64,000 nucleotides of DNA from Escherichia phage FL31, in sequence record PP400782; one strand, written 5' to 3'. Shown one piece after another: positions 2,382 through 59,570 of this stretch (its first letter is position 1; every line of letters starts with the position of its first letter). Both the position numbers and the translations under genes were made by a program. Below the pieces are notes generated by a model that made no database searches, was not told where the DNA came from, and worked only from the letters and a program-made list of their open reading frames with translations.

Positions 2382-4698
<2,317 letters not shown>

Positions 4699-6820: not shown

Positions 6821-7312
6821 ATGTTTGTAGATGACGTAACTCGCGCCTTCGAATCTGGTGATTTCGCTCGCCCTAACCTGTTCGAAGTAGAAATCTCTTA
6901 TCTTGGGCAAAACTTTAGCTTCCAGTGTCGTGCTACGGCTCTTCCTGCTGCGATCGTTGAAAAGGTTCCTGTTTCTTATATGAACCGTAAAATTAACGTG
7001 GCCGGTGATCGTACATTCGATGATTGGACTATTACAGTAATGAACGATGATGCTCATAGCATTCGTCAGAAATTTGTTGATTGGCAAGGTATTGCTGCTG
7101 GTCAAGGAAATGAAATTACTGGTGGTAAACCTGCTGAATATAAAAAGTCTGCTATCGTTCGTCAATTTGCCCGTGATGCTAAAACGGTCACTAAAGAAGT
7201 TGAAATTGTCGGCTTGTGGCCTACTAACGTTGGCGAAGTATCTCTTGACTGGGACAGCAATAACGAGATTGAAACGTTCGAAGTAACTCTTGCTCTTGAT
7301 TGGTGGGAATAA
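6821..7312 (+). CDS. 19: tail tube protein gp19
   Basis: 163 aa, the same length as T4 gp19; follows gene 18; own TATAAATA late promoter. Confidence 0.9.
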   Translation: MFVDDVTRAFESGDFARPNLFEVEISYLGQNFSFQCRATALPAAIVEKVPVSYMNRKINVAGDRTFDDWTITVMNDDAHSIRQKFVDWQGIAAGQGNEITGGKPAEYKKSAIVRQFARDAKTVTKEVEIVGLWPTNVGEVSLDWDSNNEIETFEVTLALDWWE

Positions 7313-11127: not shown

Positions 11128-12696
11128 ATGACTACTATCAAAACTAAAGCTCAGCTCGTAGACAAATGGAAAGAACTGCTGGAAGGTGAAGGCCTGCCGG
11201 AAATCGCTAATAGCAAGCAGGCTATTATCGCTAAAATCTTCGAAAACCAGGAAAAAGATTTCGAAGTATCCCCTGAATATAAAGACGAGAAAATCGCTCA
11301 GGCATTTGGTTCTTTCTTGACCGAAGCTGAAATTGGTGGTGACCATGGTTATAATGCTCAGAACATCGCAGCAGGTCAAACCTCTGGTGCAGTAACCCAA
11401 ATTGGGCCGGCAGTTATGGGTATGGTTCGTCGTGCTATTCCTAATCTGATCGCTTTTGATATTTGTGGTGTTCAGCCTATGAACAGCCCGACCGGACAGG
11501 TATTTGCTCTCCGTGCAGTATATGGTAAAGACCCTATCGCTGCTGGCGCTAAAGAAGCTTTCCATCCGATGTATGCCCCAGACGCGATGTTCTCTGGTCA
11601 GGGTGCTGCTAAGAAATTCCCAGCTCTGGCTGCTGACACTACTACTGTTGTAGGTGATATCTATACTCACTTCTTCCAAGAAACTGGTACTGTATATCTG
11701 CAAGCTTCTGCTGTCGTAACACTTGATTCTGGTGCAACTGATGCAGCTAAATTAGATGCAGAAGTTAAGAAACAAATGGAAGCTGGTGCACTGGTAGAAA
11801 TCGCTGAAGGTATGGCTACTTCTATCGCTGAACTCCAGGAAGGTTTCAACGGTTCTACCGATAACCCATGGAATGAAATGGGCTTCCGTATCGATAAACA
11901 AGTTATCGAAGCTAAATCTCGCCAGCTGAAAGCTGCTTACTCTATCGAATTAGCACAAGACCTCCGTGCAGTACACGGTATGGATGCTGATGCTGAACTG
12001 AGCGGTATTCTGGCTACAGAAATTATGCTAGAAATCAACCGTGAAGTTGTTGATTGGATTAACTACTCAGCACAGGTCGGTAAATCTGGTATGACCCTGA
12101 CTCCTGGTTCTAAAGCTGGTGTATTTGACTTCCAGGACCCGATTGATATCCGTGGTGCTCGTTGGGCCGGTGAAAGCTTTAAATCTCTGTTGTTCCAGAT
12201 TGATAAAGAAGCAGTTGAAATTGCTCGTCAAACCGGGCGTGGTGAAGGTAACTTCATTATCGCTTCCCGTAACGTAGTTAACGTACTGGCTTCAGTTGAT
12301 ACTGGTATTTCTTACGCTGCACAGGGCCTGGCTTCTGGTTTTAATACCGACACTACTAAGTCTGTATTTGCCGGTGTACTTGGTGGTAAATACCGCGTAT
12401 ACATTGACCAGTATGCTAAACAGGATTACTTCACCGTTGGTTACAAAGGCGCTAACGAAATGGATGCAGGTATTTACTATGCTCCTTACGTTGCACTTAC
12501 CCCACTGCGTGGTTCCGATCCTAAGAACTTCCAGCCGGTAATGGGCTTTAAAACTCGTTACGGTATCGGTGTTAACCCGTTTGCTGAAAGTTCCCTGCAG
12601 GCTCCAGGTGCTCGCATCCAGTCCGGTATGCCGTCTATCCTGAACAGCCTTGGTAAGAACGCTTACTTCCGCCGTGTATATGTAAAAGGCATCTAA
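11128..12696 (+). CDS. 23: major capsid protein gp23
   Basis: 522 aa (T4 gp23 521 aa); strong SD; codon usage of a highly expressed gene; C(UUCG)G terminator directly downstream. Confidence 0.95.
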   Translation: MTTIKTKAQLVDKWKELLEGEGLPEIANSKQAIIAKIFENQEKDFEVSPEYKDEKIAQAFGSFLTEAEIGGDHGYNAQNIAAGQTSGAVTQIGPAVMGMVRRAIPNLIAFDICGVQPMNSPTGQVFALRAVYGKDPIAAGAKEAFHPMYAPDAMFSGQGAAKKFPALAADTTTVVGDIYTHFFQETGTVYLQASAVVTLDSGATDAAKLDAEVKKQMEAGALVEIAEGMATSIAELQEGFNGSTDNPWNEMGFRIDKQVIEAKSRQLKAAYSIELAQDLRAVHGMDADAELSGILATEIMLEINREVVDWINYSAQVGKSGMTLTPGSKAGVFDFQDPIDIRGARWAGESFKSLLFQIDKEAVEIARQTGRGEGNFIIASRNVVNVLASVDTGISYAAQGLASGFNTDTTKSVFAGVLGGKYRVYIDQYAKQDYFTVGYKGANEMDAGIYYAPYVALTPLRGSDPKNFQPVMGFKTRYGIGVNPFAESSLQAPGARIQSGMPSILNSLGKNAYFRRVYVKGI

Positions 12697-12719: not shown

Positions 12720-12751
12720 TGGGAGACTTCGGTCTCCCATTTTTGGTTTTA
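12720..12751 (+). terminator. intrinsic terminator after gene 23
   Basis: UGGGAGAC-UUCG-GUCUCCCA hairpin followed by UUUUUGGUUUUA. Confidence 0.75.
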
Positions 12752-13018
12752 TTTCTGTGCAATTTCGATGTAAGTTTTCAAAATATTTTGCCAATTAGGC
12801 ATACCTTCTTGGACATATGCCGGAGAACCATCTTTGTTTTTGAATGATGCAAGTTTATCAGTGGCCCAATAACCTTTAGCTCGAGCTTCAGAATCAACTT
12901 TCATCCATACTTTGTTGAAGGCATTACCATTAACTTTTGCACCGTATTTTTCTACTAACTTAACTGCTTCAGCTTCCAGAACTTTTAAAGTATCTCGTAA
13001 GAAACGTGCTTTAGTCAT
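12749..13018 (-). CDS. hypothetical early protein (89 aa) lying antisense between late genes 23 and 24
   Basis: ATG start with GAGGAG SD; its own early-type promoter at 13049-13078; no recognisable motif. Confidence 0.5.
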   Translation of the reverse strand: MTKARFLRDTLKVLEAEAVKLVEKYGAKVNGNAFNKVWMKVDSEARAKGYWATDKLASFKNKDGSPAYVQEGMPNWQNILKTYIEIAQK

Positions 13019-13048
13019 TTTGTTTACTCCTCTGTAGTTGATAAGTCT

Positions 13049-13078
13049 ATAGTATCACATACTAAATACGTTGTAAAC
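13049..13078 (-). promoter_or_regulatory. early (sigma-70 type) promoter for the 89-aa ORF
   Basis: Minus strand GTTTAC, 18-nt spacer, TGTGA-TACTAT-AGAC; about 30 nt upstream of the ATG. Confidence 0.6.
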
Positions 13079-13084
13079 AATCTT

Positions 13085-13092
13085 TATAAATA
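13085..13092 (+). promoter_or_regulatory. late promoter for gene 24
   Basis: Exact TATAAATA 28 nt upstream of the gene 24 ATG. Confidence 0.7.
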
Positions 13093-13119: not shown

Positions 13120-14403
13120 ATGAGTAAAATCCAAAAATTATTGCGTGAATCTACAACGTCTACTAGCAACTCAATTGGTCGCCCAAATCTCGTTGCTTTG
13201 ACTCGCGCTACGACTAAATTAATATATTCTGACATTGTAGCAACACAAAGAACTAATCAACCTGTTGCTGCTTTTTATGGTATCAAATATCTTAACCCAG
13301 ATAACGAATTCACATTTAAAACCGGTGCTACTTATGCTGGCGAAGTTGGATATGTAGACCGAGAAAAAATTACTGAGCTCACAGAAGAATCAAAAGTCAC
13401 ACTAAATAAAGGTGATTTTTTCAAATATAATAATATCGTCTATAAAGTGTTAGAAGATACACCATTTGCAGATATTCAAGAAAGTGATCTAGAATTAGCT
13501 CTTCAGATTGCAGTCGTTCATTTAAAGGTACGGTTATTTTCAGATGCAGCGGTAACAAGCAAATTTGAAAGCTCTGATAGCGAAATTTCTGATGCAAGAT
13601 TCCAGATTAATAAATGGCAAACTTCAGTCAAATCTCGCAAACTTAAAACTGGTCTCACGGTTGAATTAGCGCAAGATTTGGAAGCGAATGGATTTGATGC
13701 TCCTAACTTCTTAGAGGATTTGCTTGCTACTGAAATGGCTGATGAAATTAATAAAGATATTCTTCAGTCTTTAATTACTGTATCGAAACGTTATAAAGTT
13801 ACTGGAATTACTGACACCGGATTTATTGACTTGAGCTATGCATCCGCTCCAGAAGCAGGTCGTTCATTATATCGAATGGTGTGTGAAATGGTATCACACA
13901 TTCAAAAAGAGACAACTTATACTGCAACGTTTTGTGTAGCCTCAGCTCGTGCAGCTGCTATTCTTGCTGCTTCCGGTTGGTTAAAACATAAGCCAGAAGA
14001 TGACAAGTATCTTTCACAAAATGCTTATGGATTCTTGGCAAATGGATTACCTCTTTACTGCGATACCAACAGTCCGTTAGATTATGTTATTGTTGGTGTT
14101 GTAGAAAATATCGGCGAAAAAGAAATTGTAGGGTCCATCTTTTATGCTCCATACACTGAAGGAGTAGATTTAGATGACCCGGAACATGTTGGTGCATTTA
14201 AAGTTGTAGTTGATCCAGAAAGCTTGCAACCGTCTATCGGATTATTGGTTAGATATGCTTTATCAGCAAATCCTTACACAGTAGCAAAAGATGAAAAAGA
14301 AGCGAGAGTAATTGATGGCGGGGACATGGATAAAATGGCAGGACGTTCAGACTTGTCTGTTTTACTCGGTGTTAAATTGCCTAAAATTATTATAGATGAA
14401 TAA
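13120..14403 (+). CDS. 24: capsid vertex protein gp24
   Basis: 427 aa, the same as T4 gp24; gp23 paralogue position; TATAAATA at 13085-13092. Confidence 0.9.
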   Translation: MSKIQKLLRESTTSTSNSIGRPNLVALTRATTKLIYSDIVATQRTNQPVAAFYGIKYLNPDNEFTFKTGATYAGEVGYVDREKITELTEESKVTLNKGDFFKYNNIVYKVLEDTPFADIQESDLELALQIAVVHLKVRLFSDAAVTSKFESSDSEISDARFQINKWQTSVKSRKLKTGLTVELAQDLEANGFDAPNFLEDLLATEMADEINKDILQSLITVSKRYKVTGITDTGFIDLSYASAPEAGRSLYRMVCEMVSHIQKETTYTATFCVASARAAAILAASGWLKHKPEDDKYLSQNAYGFLANGLPLYCDTNSPLDYVIVGVVENIGEKEIVGSIFYAPYTEGVDLDDPEHVGAFKVVVDPESLQPSIGLLVRYALSANPYTVAKDEKEARVIDGGDMDKMAGRSDLSVLLGVKLPKIIIDE

Positions 14404-15553: not shown

Positions 15554-15805
15554 TTAGAACTTGATTTCTATCCAATGACCATCACGCTGGTCGTGATTAA
15601 TTTTGTACTGAAAGCCGTTATCACGAAGCCATTGACCGACTTGTTCAGTTATAGTTAAATCATTCTTTGACGGATAGTATGTAAATTGTGTCTGGCCTTT
15701 GTCAGCGGCTTTCTCTGCCATCGCAGAGAAGTTAGTAATAAAATCACTCAACAAATTAGCTTTAGTGGCCAGAGCCCTTTCTCTTAATTCCTGTGCAAAA
15801 CTCAT
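15554..15805 (-). CDS. hypothetical protein (83 aa; T4 24.2/24.3 region)
   Basis: ATG start; ATGA overlap with the upstream ORF stop; no motif recognised. Confidence 0.45.
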   Translation of the reverse strand: MSFAQELRERALATKANLLSDFITNFSAMAEKAADKGQTQFTYYPSKNDLTITEQVGQWLRDNGFQYKINHDQRDGHWIEIKF

Positions 15806-15996
15806 TTCTTCACCTTTTTGTTAATCAAACGTTTACGGTATACAACTTTTTCTTTTGCTTTAAACTTTGACCGAGCTATCTCGGCTTTAGTCCATAGTAA
15901 TCCAACTTCTTTAGGTTGTAAACCAATTTTTTGAGCAATTTCTACGAATGAAAATCCCGCCTCATGTAATGTATAAACTTCAACTTCAGCTCTCAT
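15802..15996 (-). CDS. hypothetical small protein with predicted helix-turn-helix (64 aa from first ATG)
   Basis: The track start at 16002 is TTG; first ATG is codon 3. EAGFSFVEIAQKIGLQPKEV resembles a sigma-70 region-4/LuxR-type HTH. Confidence 0.4.
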   Translation of the reverse strand: MRAEVEVYTLHEAGFSFVEIAQKIGLQPKEVGLLWTKAEIARSKFKAKEKVVYRKRLINKKVKK

Positions 15997-16077
15997 AATC
16001 AATCCCGTATTATTTGGTTTGTGCCATTATATACATCAATCTCAAGTTGTGTTTTGTATGCTTTAAAAACGAAGAAA

Positions 16078-28353: not shown

Positions 28354-28382
28354 AACGTTTTCCTCATGTTGTTGATGGGACA

Positions 28383-28412
28383 ATAGTATCACACATCCAT
28401 GTGTTTGTAAAC
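28383..28412 (-). promoter_or_regulatory. early promoter downstream of alt
   Basis: Minus strand GTTTAC, 18-nt spacer, TGTGA-TACTAT; the -35 overlaps the alt stop. Confidence 0.6.
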
Positions 28413-30499
28413 TATCCTTGGACAAATTTAAACGGAACTGATTCTAAATCCATTAAAGATGCTAACAATTTCAAACCTTTAGGTGCACTAGTTTTTTCTA
28501 CAAATGAGGCAAAAGATACCGGCTCATCTGATTCGATTTCACCCGTCATAGCAACTACCTCGCCTGTTTCCATGAGAACATCACCATCGTAAATGACAGC
28601 TTCGTCCAACTGGTCCGATGACATGACTTCAGCTTGAATAAATTTAAGGTTGGATTCTAAACCTGCACCAGTGTCAGATGACGCATCTGTAATTTTATTT
28701 ATCTGTAAGAGAATGCCTCTAGGCAAAATAATTTCTTGCTCATTAGGGTGATTACTCAACTGCCCCGGATAAATCACGTTAACTTTATGAGCGCCATCAA
28801 TAGCCCATCCAACATTAACACGAATTTGTTCTGGCGCATGCATAGCGGTACGCACCAGGCTAGGAGAAATAGTAACACCTTCGTCATTATTGTCAATGTT
28901 AAGCTCTTTGCGAACTTCTTCAGGAGCAAGTCCAAGGGCAACGTTCTCTTTAAACCCACCGAAAATAATAGGAGCTAGTGAAGTGGAAACATAGTTTCTG
29001 AAGTAGAATACCTTATTTTTAACCATTGCTTCGTAAATAGGCATTCTGATAGACTGAGCTCTATATAACGTTAGTCCTTCAGGTAAACGATCTCCATTTA
29101 AAAACGCTGAATCAAGACCATCAATAGCGCGTTTAACTTCATCTTCATCTGCAACATCGTAAAAATCTGGTTTATAACGACCTAACAACATATTATTGAT
29201 ATCGGTATACGCAGAAGAGGCATATTCACGAATAGCTCGTTTTTCAGCAACAGAGTATTGTTTAGGGTCCCGATTCATTGTTATATTAAAGGTGCCTCTA
29301 GCCGATTCTCGTGCATAAGTATACATCACATTAGACAAGAACGCTGATTTACGTTGTTTCCAAGTTTTTTCAGATACTTCAGCCAAAACATCGTCTGCCA
29401 GTTGGAAATTATCTCGTCTAAAATCTTCAAACCATTCGTCTCTAATAGAGTCTGCAATTTCATTTGCAGCTTCAACAAAAGCAGCTAATGCTTTAACAGA
29501 TGTTGTTTTTTCGGTTTTAATTTTCTTAGCAAACTTTTCTAAAGTTGGCTTAATAACACTACCATAAGAAACTTCATCAGCAAATCTAAAGGATTCATCA
29601 ATACGATTATAAATCTTATTTTCGATATCAGCAACTAAAGTGCCTTTTGCTGTGGATGATGCTTGGGCTAGTACGATTTCATATGCTTCAGGAAGTAATT
29701 CGGCTGTAGCCGGGCCACTAACTTCTTTAGCAGAATTTTCGTATTTCTGGAATAACTCACCTTCTTGGCGGTCAGCTTCTAAAGATTGGCTTGCGGCAAT
29801 AGCGCGCCGAGAAATTTTAGTACGAGCAATAACAGGCTTATCTTTACGTTTTTCTTCTACAGCAGCAATAGAACCAGCGATAGCCGTTTCTTTGGTGACC
29901 GTTTCGCCAGTCTTTTTACTCACATAAACTTCGCCAACATCAGAATCTACTTTCGTGTACAACTCTGTGTTAATGTTAGGGATGCCTTTAATATCTTCAA
30001 TGTTGGCATTTTTACGAACCATCATCACATAAGTGTGTTTACCTGTGAATTGATACATTGCCGACAATACTTTAAAACGACCACCGGTTTTAGTAGAAAC
30101 TAAACGAGCAAGAAGAGTTTGAAGTTGCTGTCCACGTCCTTTCAATTTCTTGGTAGGGAATCGGAACAGAACTGCATCCATACGAAGAGCTTTAACCTGT
30201 TCATACACTGTATTGAAAATGGTGTTGATTGCATCAATAGGAGCAGGGCCAAGGCCATTTTTCAATTCAGCTAGATTACCCTTTTCAGACAGACTCATAA
30301 TAACAACATGAGCGTATTTGTCGCCAAGTTTAACTTGTTTTACAGCGTCGCCTTCGGAAAGGTAAGAGAATAAACGAACTACAATATTTGTATCGATATC
30401 ACCAATTTTCCAGACTTGTGGAACTTTAGCTTTAGGGTTCAAATTGACGACAGGAAGACTGCCTTCAGATTCAAACACTTCATTTAATTGTTCAGACAT
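28412..30499 (-). CDS. alt: Alt-like capsid-packaged ADP-ribosyltransferase
   Basis: 695 aa (T4 Alt 682 aa) located between gene 54 and DNA ligase as in T4; assigned by size, position and recalled similarity, motifs not verified. Confidence 0.75.
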   Translation of the reverse strand: MSEQLNEVFESEGSLPVVNLNPKAKVPQVWKIGDIDTNIVVRLFSYLSEGDAVKQVKLGDKYAHVVIMSLSEKGNLAELKNGLGPAPIDAINTIFNTVYEQVKALRMDAVLFRFPTKKLKGRGQQLQTLLARLVSTKTGGRFKVLSAMYQFTGKHTYVMMVRKNANIEDIKGIPNINTELYTKVDSDVGEVYVSKKTGETVTKETAIAGSIAAVEEKRKDKPVIARTKISRRAIAASQSLEADRQEGELFQKYENSAKEVSGPATAELLPEAYEIVLAQASSTAKGTLVADIENKIYNRIDESFRFADEVSYGSVIKPTLEKFAKKIKTEKTTSVKALAAFVEAANEIADSIRDEWFEDFRRDNFQLADDVLAEVSEKTWKQRKSAFLSNVMYTYARESARGTFNITMNRDPKQYSVAEKRAIREYASSAYTDINNMLLGRYKPDFYDVADEDEVKRAIDGLDSAFLNGDRLPEGLTLYRAQSIRMPIYEAMVKNKVFYFRNYVSTSLAPIIFGGFKENVALGLAPEEVRKELNIDNNDEGVTISPSLVRTAMHAPEQIRVNVGWAIDGAHKVNVIYPGQLSNHPNEQEIILPRGILLQINKITDASSDTGAGLESNLKFIQAEVMSSDQLDEAVIYDGDVLMETGEVVAMTGEIESDEPVSFASFVEKTSAPKGLKLLASLMDLESVPFKFVQG

Positions 30500-35329: not shown

Positions 35330-35370
35330 TTTATTCTCCGGTTGTTTTATTGATTAGGTGGTACAAGTCT

Positions 35371-35399
35371 ATAGTAACACATCCTACAGGAGAGTAAAC
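35371..35399 (-). promoter_or_regulatory. early promoter
   Basis: Minus strand GTTTAC, 17-nt spacer, TGTGT-TACTAT-AGAC; upstream of the ORF starting at 35329; directly 3' of a C(UUCG)G terminator. Confidence 0.6.
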
Positions 35400-35435
35400 A
35401 TCTTTTTAAACTTTTTCTGCCCTAAACGCACAAAA

Positions 35436-35453
35436 GGGAGACCGAAGTCTCCC
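35436..35453 (-). terminator. terminator after the 59-aa basic protein gene
   Basis: Minus-strand GGGAGAC-UUCG-GUCUCCC followed by UUUUGUGCGUUU; 23-nt identity with the gene 32 terminator. Confidence 0.7.
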
Positions 35454-35458
35454 TAAAA

Positions 35459-51229: not shown

Positions 51230-51260
51230 AACTTTTTCGGCAATTTACAGATACTCAAAA

Positions 51261-51278
51261 GGGAGACCGAAGTCTCCC
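51261..51278 (-). terminator. terminator after gene 32
   Basis: Minus-strand GGGAGAC-UUCG-GUCUCCC followed by UUUUGAG. Confidence 0.7.
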
Positions 51279-51284
51279 AATTTA

Positions 51285-59549: not shown

Positions 59550-59570
59550 AGGAGACTTCGGTCTCCTTTT
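59549..59570 (+). terminator. terminator after gene 35
   Basis: AAGGAGAC-UUCG-GUCUCCUU then UU; overlaps the gp35 stop codon. Confidence 0.65.

Follow-up and report, generated by a model that had tools for sequence, protein, structure and literature searches.

The DNA analyzed here, hereafter the window, is a 64,000-nucleotide stretch of the genome of Escherichia phage FL31 (record PP400782). By its sequence, the phage is an RB69-like T-even phage of the genus Mosigvirus. A 601-base query covering the locus matched 241 phage records; the best 40 of the 241 were 99.2–99.7% identical to it and included PhAPEC2 (classified as Mosigvirus), APCEc01, O157 typing phage 3 and NicPhage. According to the ORF list and the annotations of PhAPEC2 and RB69, the genes 21, 22 and 23 on the plus strand are followed by an 89-amino-acid (aa) ORF on the minus strand, by gene 24 on the plus strand, and by rnlB, 24.2, 24.3 and hoc on the minus strand. 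Gene 23 (11128–12696) encodes the 522-aa major capsid protein, is annotated as such in PhAPEC2 and RB69, and forms the left flank of the slot between the two capsid genes; its product shares 94.8% amino acid identity with T4 gp23. The right flank is gene 24 (13120–14403, plus strand; identified from the ORF list and the PhAPEC2 annotation), which encodes the 427-aa capsid vertex protein and whose product shares 95.1% identity with T4 gp24. The two capsid proteins, about 95% identical to those of T4, are only 84% and 70% identical to gp23 and gp24 of JS98.

A sequence-only reading of the window had described a minus-strand ORF between the late genes 23 and 24, equipped with a GAGGAG Shine-Dalgarno sequence and a consensus early promoter. 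All three elements were found. The ORF starts with ATG and occupies 12749–13018 on the minus strand, stop codon included. The GAGGAG motif, read directly from the sequence, lies at 13027–13032, 8 nt 5′ of the ATG. A T4-type early (sigma-70) promoter was located by pattern scan at 13049–13078 on the minus strand and has a counterpart in RB69 (Pe:109605). The cassette is enclosed by two plus-strand signals. On its left lies the intrinsic terminator of gene 23 (12720–12739), predicted by a terminator scan and by RNA folding, and in RB69 by TransTerm. On its right lies the gene 24 late promoter TATAAATA (13085–13092), identified by a motif scan, by the RB69 counterpart Pl:109573 and by an alignment of eight phages.

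The early promoter consists of a −35 element GTTTAC(A) at 13073–13078, a spacer of 17 nt counted from TTTACA, and an extended −10 element (TG-a-TACTAT) with TG at 13056–13057 and TACTAT at 13049–13054. It is preceded by the A-rich stretch ttataaagatt, and transcription is expected to start near position 13042. In its −35 element, spacer, −10 element, A-rich upstream stretch and orientation towards a ribosome binding site, the sequence agrees with a T4-type early promoter. The pattern GTTTAC-N16–18-TANNAT occurs ten times in the window against 0.9 expected, and none of 100 shuffled sequences reached ten. Every one of the ten sites is on the minus strand. Nine, including that of the ORF itself, are located a few tens of nucleotides 5′ of an AG-rich ribosome binding site and an ATG; the leader motif atcaac is common to several. 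The site at 13049–13078 is a typical member of the phage's own early-promoter set. A generic sigma-70 scan, which returned 13 sites with 13.7 expected, was uninformative because the DNA is AT-rich. The sole match of the ten without a close ribosome binding site and start codon, at 15894–15923 on the minus strand, lies inside a 24.3-like ORF (15802–16002) and upstream of a 24.2-like ORF (15554–15805), an area for which middle promoters have been reported in T4. Promoter-like similarity to the segment 13043–13090 recurs at 35365–35410 and 28361–28419 of the window.

Only 6 nt separate the early −35 element from TATAAATA, so that the early and the late promoter stand back to back. The late-promoter box occurs 18 times in the window, with 7.35 occurrences expected. 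In the eight-phage alignment, the −35 element, which reads TGTAAAC on the plus strand and TGTAAAT in T4, keeps a constant distance to the late promoter in occupied slots, namely in the window, RB69, JS98, VR7, L008 (a metagenomic contig) and T4, and the empty slots are devoid of the −35 element. JS98 and the metagenomic contigs L013 and L014 have a conserved early promoter 5′ of the homologous ORF; in L008 its −35 element is degenerate, and in VR7 its −10 element is altered.

At the other end of the cassette, the gene 23 terminator reads on the plus strand TGGGAGAC-TTCG-GTCTCCCA, followed by TTTTTGG. Its hairpin folds with −19 kcal/mol (z = −5.1) and lies 9 nt past the stop codon of the ORF. 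On the minus strand the hairpin is followed by AAAAUAAG and has no U-tract, which is also the case in JS98, L008 and L014, and the ORF of VR7 has a proper bidirectional terminator downstream. The stem GGGAGAC-loop-GTCTCCC is identical in JS98, L008, L013 and L014. The hairpin stem and the junction of the two promoters are nearly constant, and the coding sequence between them varies. A scan of the region against Rfam gave nothing above threshold. Near-copies of the hairpin (GGGAGAC-TTCG-GTCTCCC with flanks) are present in the window at 35423–35457, 51257–51280 and 59551–59566.

The gene is not new: it is already annotated in GenBank as a hypothetical protein, and its signals have been predicted before. 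The supplement of the study of Nolan et al. 2006 (PMC1524935) lists for RB69 the minus-strand early promoter Pe:109605 with a promoter-HMM score of 29.9, the plus-strand late promoter Pl:109573, and the TransTerm terminator "23-><-RB69ORF188c" at RB69 109234–109251. These are the three elements found in the window, since the window and RB69 are 97% identical in DNA across the locus. The ORF of PhAPEC2 (PhAPEC2_170) is annotated as "similar to RB69ORF188c". RB69ORF188c and RB69ORF189c (NP_861878, NP_861879), PhAPEC2_170, JS98 orf173 and VR7ORF190c represent the same gene in the same slot and orientation as in the window. In the RB69 reference sequence (NC_004928; L007 5292–5532), however, two 1-bp indels split the frame into RB69ORF189c, the 29-aa N-terminal part, and RB69ORF188c, a 41-aa ORF that starts at the internal Met39. 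The unbroken 89-aa form of the window is therefore the intact gene. Either the gene is a pseudogene in the RB69 laboratory strain, or the split goes back to errors of the old sequencing. Truncated forms of the ORF are also found in the phages mogra and 310Ecol104PP. The gene, its ORF being broken there, is dispensable in at least mogra and 310Ecol104PP and, if the split is not a sequencing error, in RB69. Searches of the literature for the locus names, for gene expression in Mosigvirus, Dhakavirus and JS98, and for accessory-gene screens returned nothing on this gene beyond Nolan et al. 2006 and a review by Edgell et al. 2010, which is discussed below.

We regard the 89-aa ORF as a real gene because it matches a phage protein family, is present in 240 phage records, shows pN far below pS, and yields a confident AlphaFold2 model. 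The family is PHROG 6003, a phage family without assigned function; its profile matches residues 1–89 of the protein over positions 1–90 of 90 with E = 2.1e-45 and 153.6 bits. The value of pN is well below pS in all pairs compared, and dN/dS is about 0.10 for the window versus L008 and for JS98 versus VR7, the two pairs that have diverged least, although dS is saturated. The protein evidently evolves under purifying selection. At the same time, it diverges far faster than its neighbors. Between the window and JS98 the ORF products are 34% identical, compared with 84% for gp23 and 70% for gp24; between JS98 and VR7 the corresponding values are 64%, 97% and 89%. Seven residues (M1, K3, F6, G31, N32, N35 and Q70) are invariant in 13 diverse members with identities down to about 30%. 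The protein is basic and soluble, with no hydrophobic segment; its pI is 9.62, and 12 of the 13 members have values of 9.2–9.9.

Profile searches of Pfam, NCBIfam and PADLOC with the window protein placed it in no family. A partial Pfam match to DUF4859 (17.9 bits, E = 0.0029) stays under the gathering threshold of 22.6 bits and was rejected. Among the PADLOC profiles of anti-phage defence components the window protein had no match, and two of its relatives gave weak partial matches with E = 0.002 and 0.012. A profile search of the PDB returned nothing under E = 0.025. A word-indexed search of 5.8 billion proteins gave 8 matches with the single sequence and 20 with the profile, and all inspected contigs were T-even-like. 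HMMER, run exhaustively with the profile on 1.84 billion representatives, gave 10 matches. Two full-length matches, P0021 (87 aa, 83 bits) and P0023 (84 aa, 63 bits), are true distant members of the family. P0021 is encoded among small same-strand ORFs on a 35-kb contig with patchy similarity to large Klebsiella and Serratia myoviruses, which has the appearance of a myovirus-like early region. P0023 is encoded on a siphovirus-like contig, just 3′ of a GpJ-type tail-tip gene. The neighbors of both genes are small ORFs without known function and are uninformative. A 160-aa match looks like a chimeric or misassembled ORF and was set aside. Two giant surface proteins of the Big_2 repeat type, P0022 (1347 aa, E = 5e-15) and P0024 (3916 aa, E = 2e-6), were discarded as artefacts, because weak scores of 2–12 bits per repeat were summed over near-identical repeats; the value of 5e-15 arises from eight or nine of them. 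The region matched to the Big_2 repeats is predicted to be helical in the window protein. With a profile of 90 positions, summed repeat scores can evidently mimic homology.

The AlphaFold2 model of the protein, built from an alignment of 15 sequences, has a pLDDT of 88.5 and a pTM of 0.76. It consists of three helices (residues 3–25, 31–48 and 76–88) and a β-hairpin (56–60/66–70), and the invariant G-N-x-x-N motif is located at the loop between helix 1 and helix 2. A Foldseek search of the PDB gave no match under E = 0.5, and the only return from BFVD was an 88-aa homolog of the second allele class (class B, see below), 31% identical with a TM-score of 0.78. The fold gives no support for an HU/IHF-like or winged-helix DNA binder, and in these searches no structural similarity to solved phage proteins for host takeover or anti-defence was found. 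A membrane or secreted protein was rejected for want of a hydrophobic segment; a virion protein was rejected in view of the early promoter and of the PhAPEC2 annotation, which carries no virion flag for the ORF. The family is best described as an orphan whose predicted fold has no placed relative.

The sequence-only reading presented the antisense early cassette within the capsid operon as a trait of the locus. The cassette is present as described, but it is not peculiar to the phage of the window. A tblastn search found the protein in 240 phage records; in 238 of them a single place accounts for 80% or more of the query. About 120 records contain near-identical versions (at least 80% identity), for which the taxonomy of PhAPEC2 was checked (Mosigvirus). 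A further 120 or so contain versions below 60% identity (30–38%); here JS98 (Dhakavirus) and VR7 (Gaprivervirus) were checked, and most of the remaining records listed are Escherichia phages. Eight T-even-type loci were opened (PhAPEC2, RB69, JS98, VR7 and the metagenomic contigs L008, L009, L013 and L014), and in each of them the ORF occupies the 23–24 interval and runs against both genes. A scan of IMG/VR for the family gave matches only in genomes of about 155–172 kb, the T-even size range.

Other T-even phages have a different occupant or none. T4 lacks the ORF despite the 95% identity of its capsid genes to those of the window, and its slot, like that of 52 other records, contains segD. 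In a spread sample of relatives, the slot is empty in most T4/T2-like and Klebsiella phages, including many Tequatrovirus members (T2, RB7, RB27) and Klebsiella phages such as Jiaodavirus KPV15; the junction then measures about 470 bp, compared with 1201 bp in T4, and consists of the terminator and the late promoter with nothing but a short spacer between them. The spacer between terminator and late promoter, TTTAGTTGTTTT[T/A]ATGG, is nearly identical in T2 (L005 510–598) and KPV15 (L006 508–594), and for this reason the empty slot looks like the ancestral state, as the junction sequences suggest.

The alleles fall into two deep classes. Class A includes the window, L013 and L008; class B includes JS98, VR7 and L014. 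The products of JS98 orf173 and VR7ORF190c are only 34–37% identical to the window protein, while gp23 is 84% identical. In one contig, the class of the allele does not agree with the backbone. L008 is a 173-kb metagenomic T-even contig whose gp23 is 92–93% identical to those of JS98 and VR7 and whose gene 24 is duplicated, as in these phages. Its ORF (3001–3273) is nevertheless a class A allele, 62% identical to that of the window and only 29–30% identical to those of JS98 and VR7. A class A allele on a JS98/VR7-like backbone indicates that the cassette has been exchanged between backbones and genera.

The statement in the sequence-only reading that T4 has a seg-type homing endonuclease gene at this position proved accurate, as did its statement that the occupant of the window is a different, small protein. 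T4 segD encodes a 223-aa GIY-YIG protein on the minus strand between genes 23 and 24; the 89-aa gene is not in the T4 interval. The window product has no GIY-YIG motif, belongs to no Pfam, NCBIfam or PADLOC family, and is annotated without a function. Seg-type GIY-YIG enzymes combine a catalytic with a DNA-binding domain in about 200 aa or more, and the 89-aa protein does not qualify as one. The T4 cassette has the same slot and the same antisense orientation, but SegD is a nuclease and the window product is an unrelated helical protein without a nuclease motif. The similarity of the two cassettes lies in their 5′ regions, in each of which the −35 element adjoins the late promoter of gene 24. 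When T4 NC_000866 (L004) 7234–7300 is aligned with window 13016–13084, 44 of the 58 T4 bases between the segD start codon and the late promoter are identical to bases of the corresponding 69 in the window, and the alignment score is above that of all 2000 shuffles. The segD gene is preceded by ATTTAC-18-TATTAT, that is, by a −35 element ATTTAC with an 18-nt spacer, as opposed to GTTTACA and 17 nt in the window. In the review of Edgell et al. 2010 (PMC2988022) it is stated that a segD-specific promoter could not be identified. The simplest reading of the alignment would be that segD replaced cargo of the RB69ORF188c type behind a resident promoter and leader. Less probably, the similarity may be due to the promoter consensus that both regions follow.

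The slot could be viewed as a recombination hot spot and the ORF as its selfish passenger, which disrupts a homing-endonuclease target or is carried along in exchanges during co-infection and has no action on the host. The free-standing segD in the T4 slot, the alignment of its 5′ region with the promoter and leader of the cassette, and the disagreement of allele class and backbone in L008 would all be expected of such an element. We nevertheless consider this explanation unlikely. The protein has neither a nuclease motif nor a nuclease fold, it is conserved as a protein with dN/dS near 0.1, it is encoded in about 240 records, and its relatives occur elsewhere in phages that are not T-even. 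Blocking of a target site would also not require a conserved 89-aa protein with invariant residues.

A second explanation, which we hold to be improbable, assigns the role to the transcript and not to the protein. Early RNA would read through the weak minus-strand hairpin into the antisense of gene 23; alternatively, occupancy of the promoter next to TATAAATA would dampen expression of the genes 23 and 24 that is premature or due to read-through. Read-through into the antisense strand of gene 23 is conceivable, since the hairpin past the ORF, followed by AAAAUAAG in the window, has no minus-strand U-tract there or in JS98, L008 and L014; promoter interference would also fit the fixed distance between the early −35 element and the adjoining late promoter of gene 24, which is seen in the window, RB69, JS98, VR7, L008 and T4. 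However, selection acts at the level of the protein, for which a confident fold is predicted. The T2-like and Klebsiella junctions have neither the cassette nor an opposing promoter, and the VR7 ORF is followed by its bidirectional terminator. It is also well established that T4-type phages keep early transcription apart in time from late transcription. An antisense effect on the late genes, which the sequence-only reading had raised, is thus possible but unsupported. Although the ORF has the same place in the 23–24 interval of each of the eight T-even-type loci examined, a function as an accessory of head morphogenesis, such as a chaperone or regulator of gp23 or gp24, is highly improbable, since the gene has an early promoter that points against the late capsid genes, is replaced by segD in T4 and missing from the empty slots of the sampled T2-like phages although T4 gp23 and gp24 are 95% identical to those of the window, has neighbors that are flagged as virion proteins in PhAPEC2 while it is not, and has distant homologs that are not located beside capsid genes.

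We propose instead that the product of the ORF is an early accessory protein which the phage can dispense with and which binds a host component, in the service of host takeover or counter-defence, and we assign this reading a probability of about 0.5. The gene would form a monocistronic early cassette, inserted with the terminator of gene 23 on one side and the late promoter of gene 24 on the other. Within the first minutes after infection, the sigma-70 RNA polymerase of the host would initiate at GTTTACA-17-TGaTACTAT, and the leader, about 24 nt long and equipped with the strong GAGGAG site, would direct the synthesis of a basic cytoplasmic protein of 89 aa, predicted to consist of three helices and a β-hairpin. 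This protein would bind a host macromolecule; because its positive charge is conserved, a nucleic acid or an acidic protein would fit as the partner. It may thereby either aid the takeover of the host or counter a host defence. Since early promoters of the T4 type fall silent ahead of late transcription, the backwards orientation within the capsid operon should be harmless and not regulatory. The early expression, the cytoplasmic location, the binding role and the purpose are inferred features of this proposal, in which "host interaction" denotes a functional class and not a mechanism.

The accessory character of the gene is argued for by the broken ORFs, the empty slots, the exchange of alleles and the distant members outside the T-even phages. 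Fast divergence, exchanged allele classes and a scattered presence among unrelated enterobacterial phages usually mark an accessory gene of this kind. Against it may be held that about 99% of the matching records contain a nearly full-length gene, as an optional gene might be lost more often. The ORF resembles the "novel ORFs" of the T4-like phages in Nolan et al. 2006 in its early promoter, small size, phage-only homologs and variable presence. Those ORFs are mostly located in same-strand early clusters, whereas the ORF in the window stands alone and backwards between late structural genes. In RB69, 13 of the 57 predicted early promoters precede such "novel ORFs" (PMC1524935). A more specific version of our proposal can be put forward only tentatively. 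The product may be an early effector with a small fold not seen before, such as one that inhibits a host defence or a host protein that handles nucleic acids; its two allele classes may be ancient and have been exchanged between T-even genera through the flanking genes 23 and 24, and the slot may be a site of cargo swapping whose resident promoter and leader were taken over by T4 segD.

The ORF is an ordinary T-even accessory gene and not a new kind of element or system. Its significance is at present small, as it adds one more early accessory gene that is annotated in many genomes. The slot contains it in three genera of coliphages, among them candidates for therapy and phages of model collections. 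A fast-diverging yet constrained pattern of this kind is typical of proteins in phage–host conflict. Two features are of modest interest, namely the cargo-swapping slot, which segD occupies in T4, and the exchange of two allele classes. The common 5′ region provides a concrete candidate for the missing segD promoter, and if segD did replace the resident gene, the slot is an example of a homing-endonuclease gene displacing resident cargo. The two allele classes lie between nearly identical flanks, which would make allele swaps easy. Next to the slot, gene 24 is present as a tandem duplication in JS98, VR7, L008 and L014.
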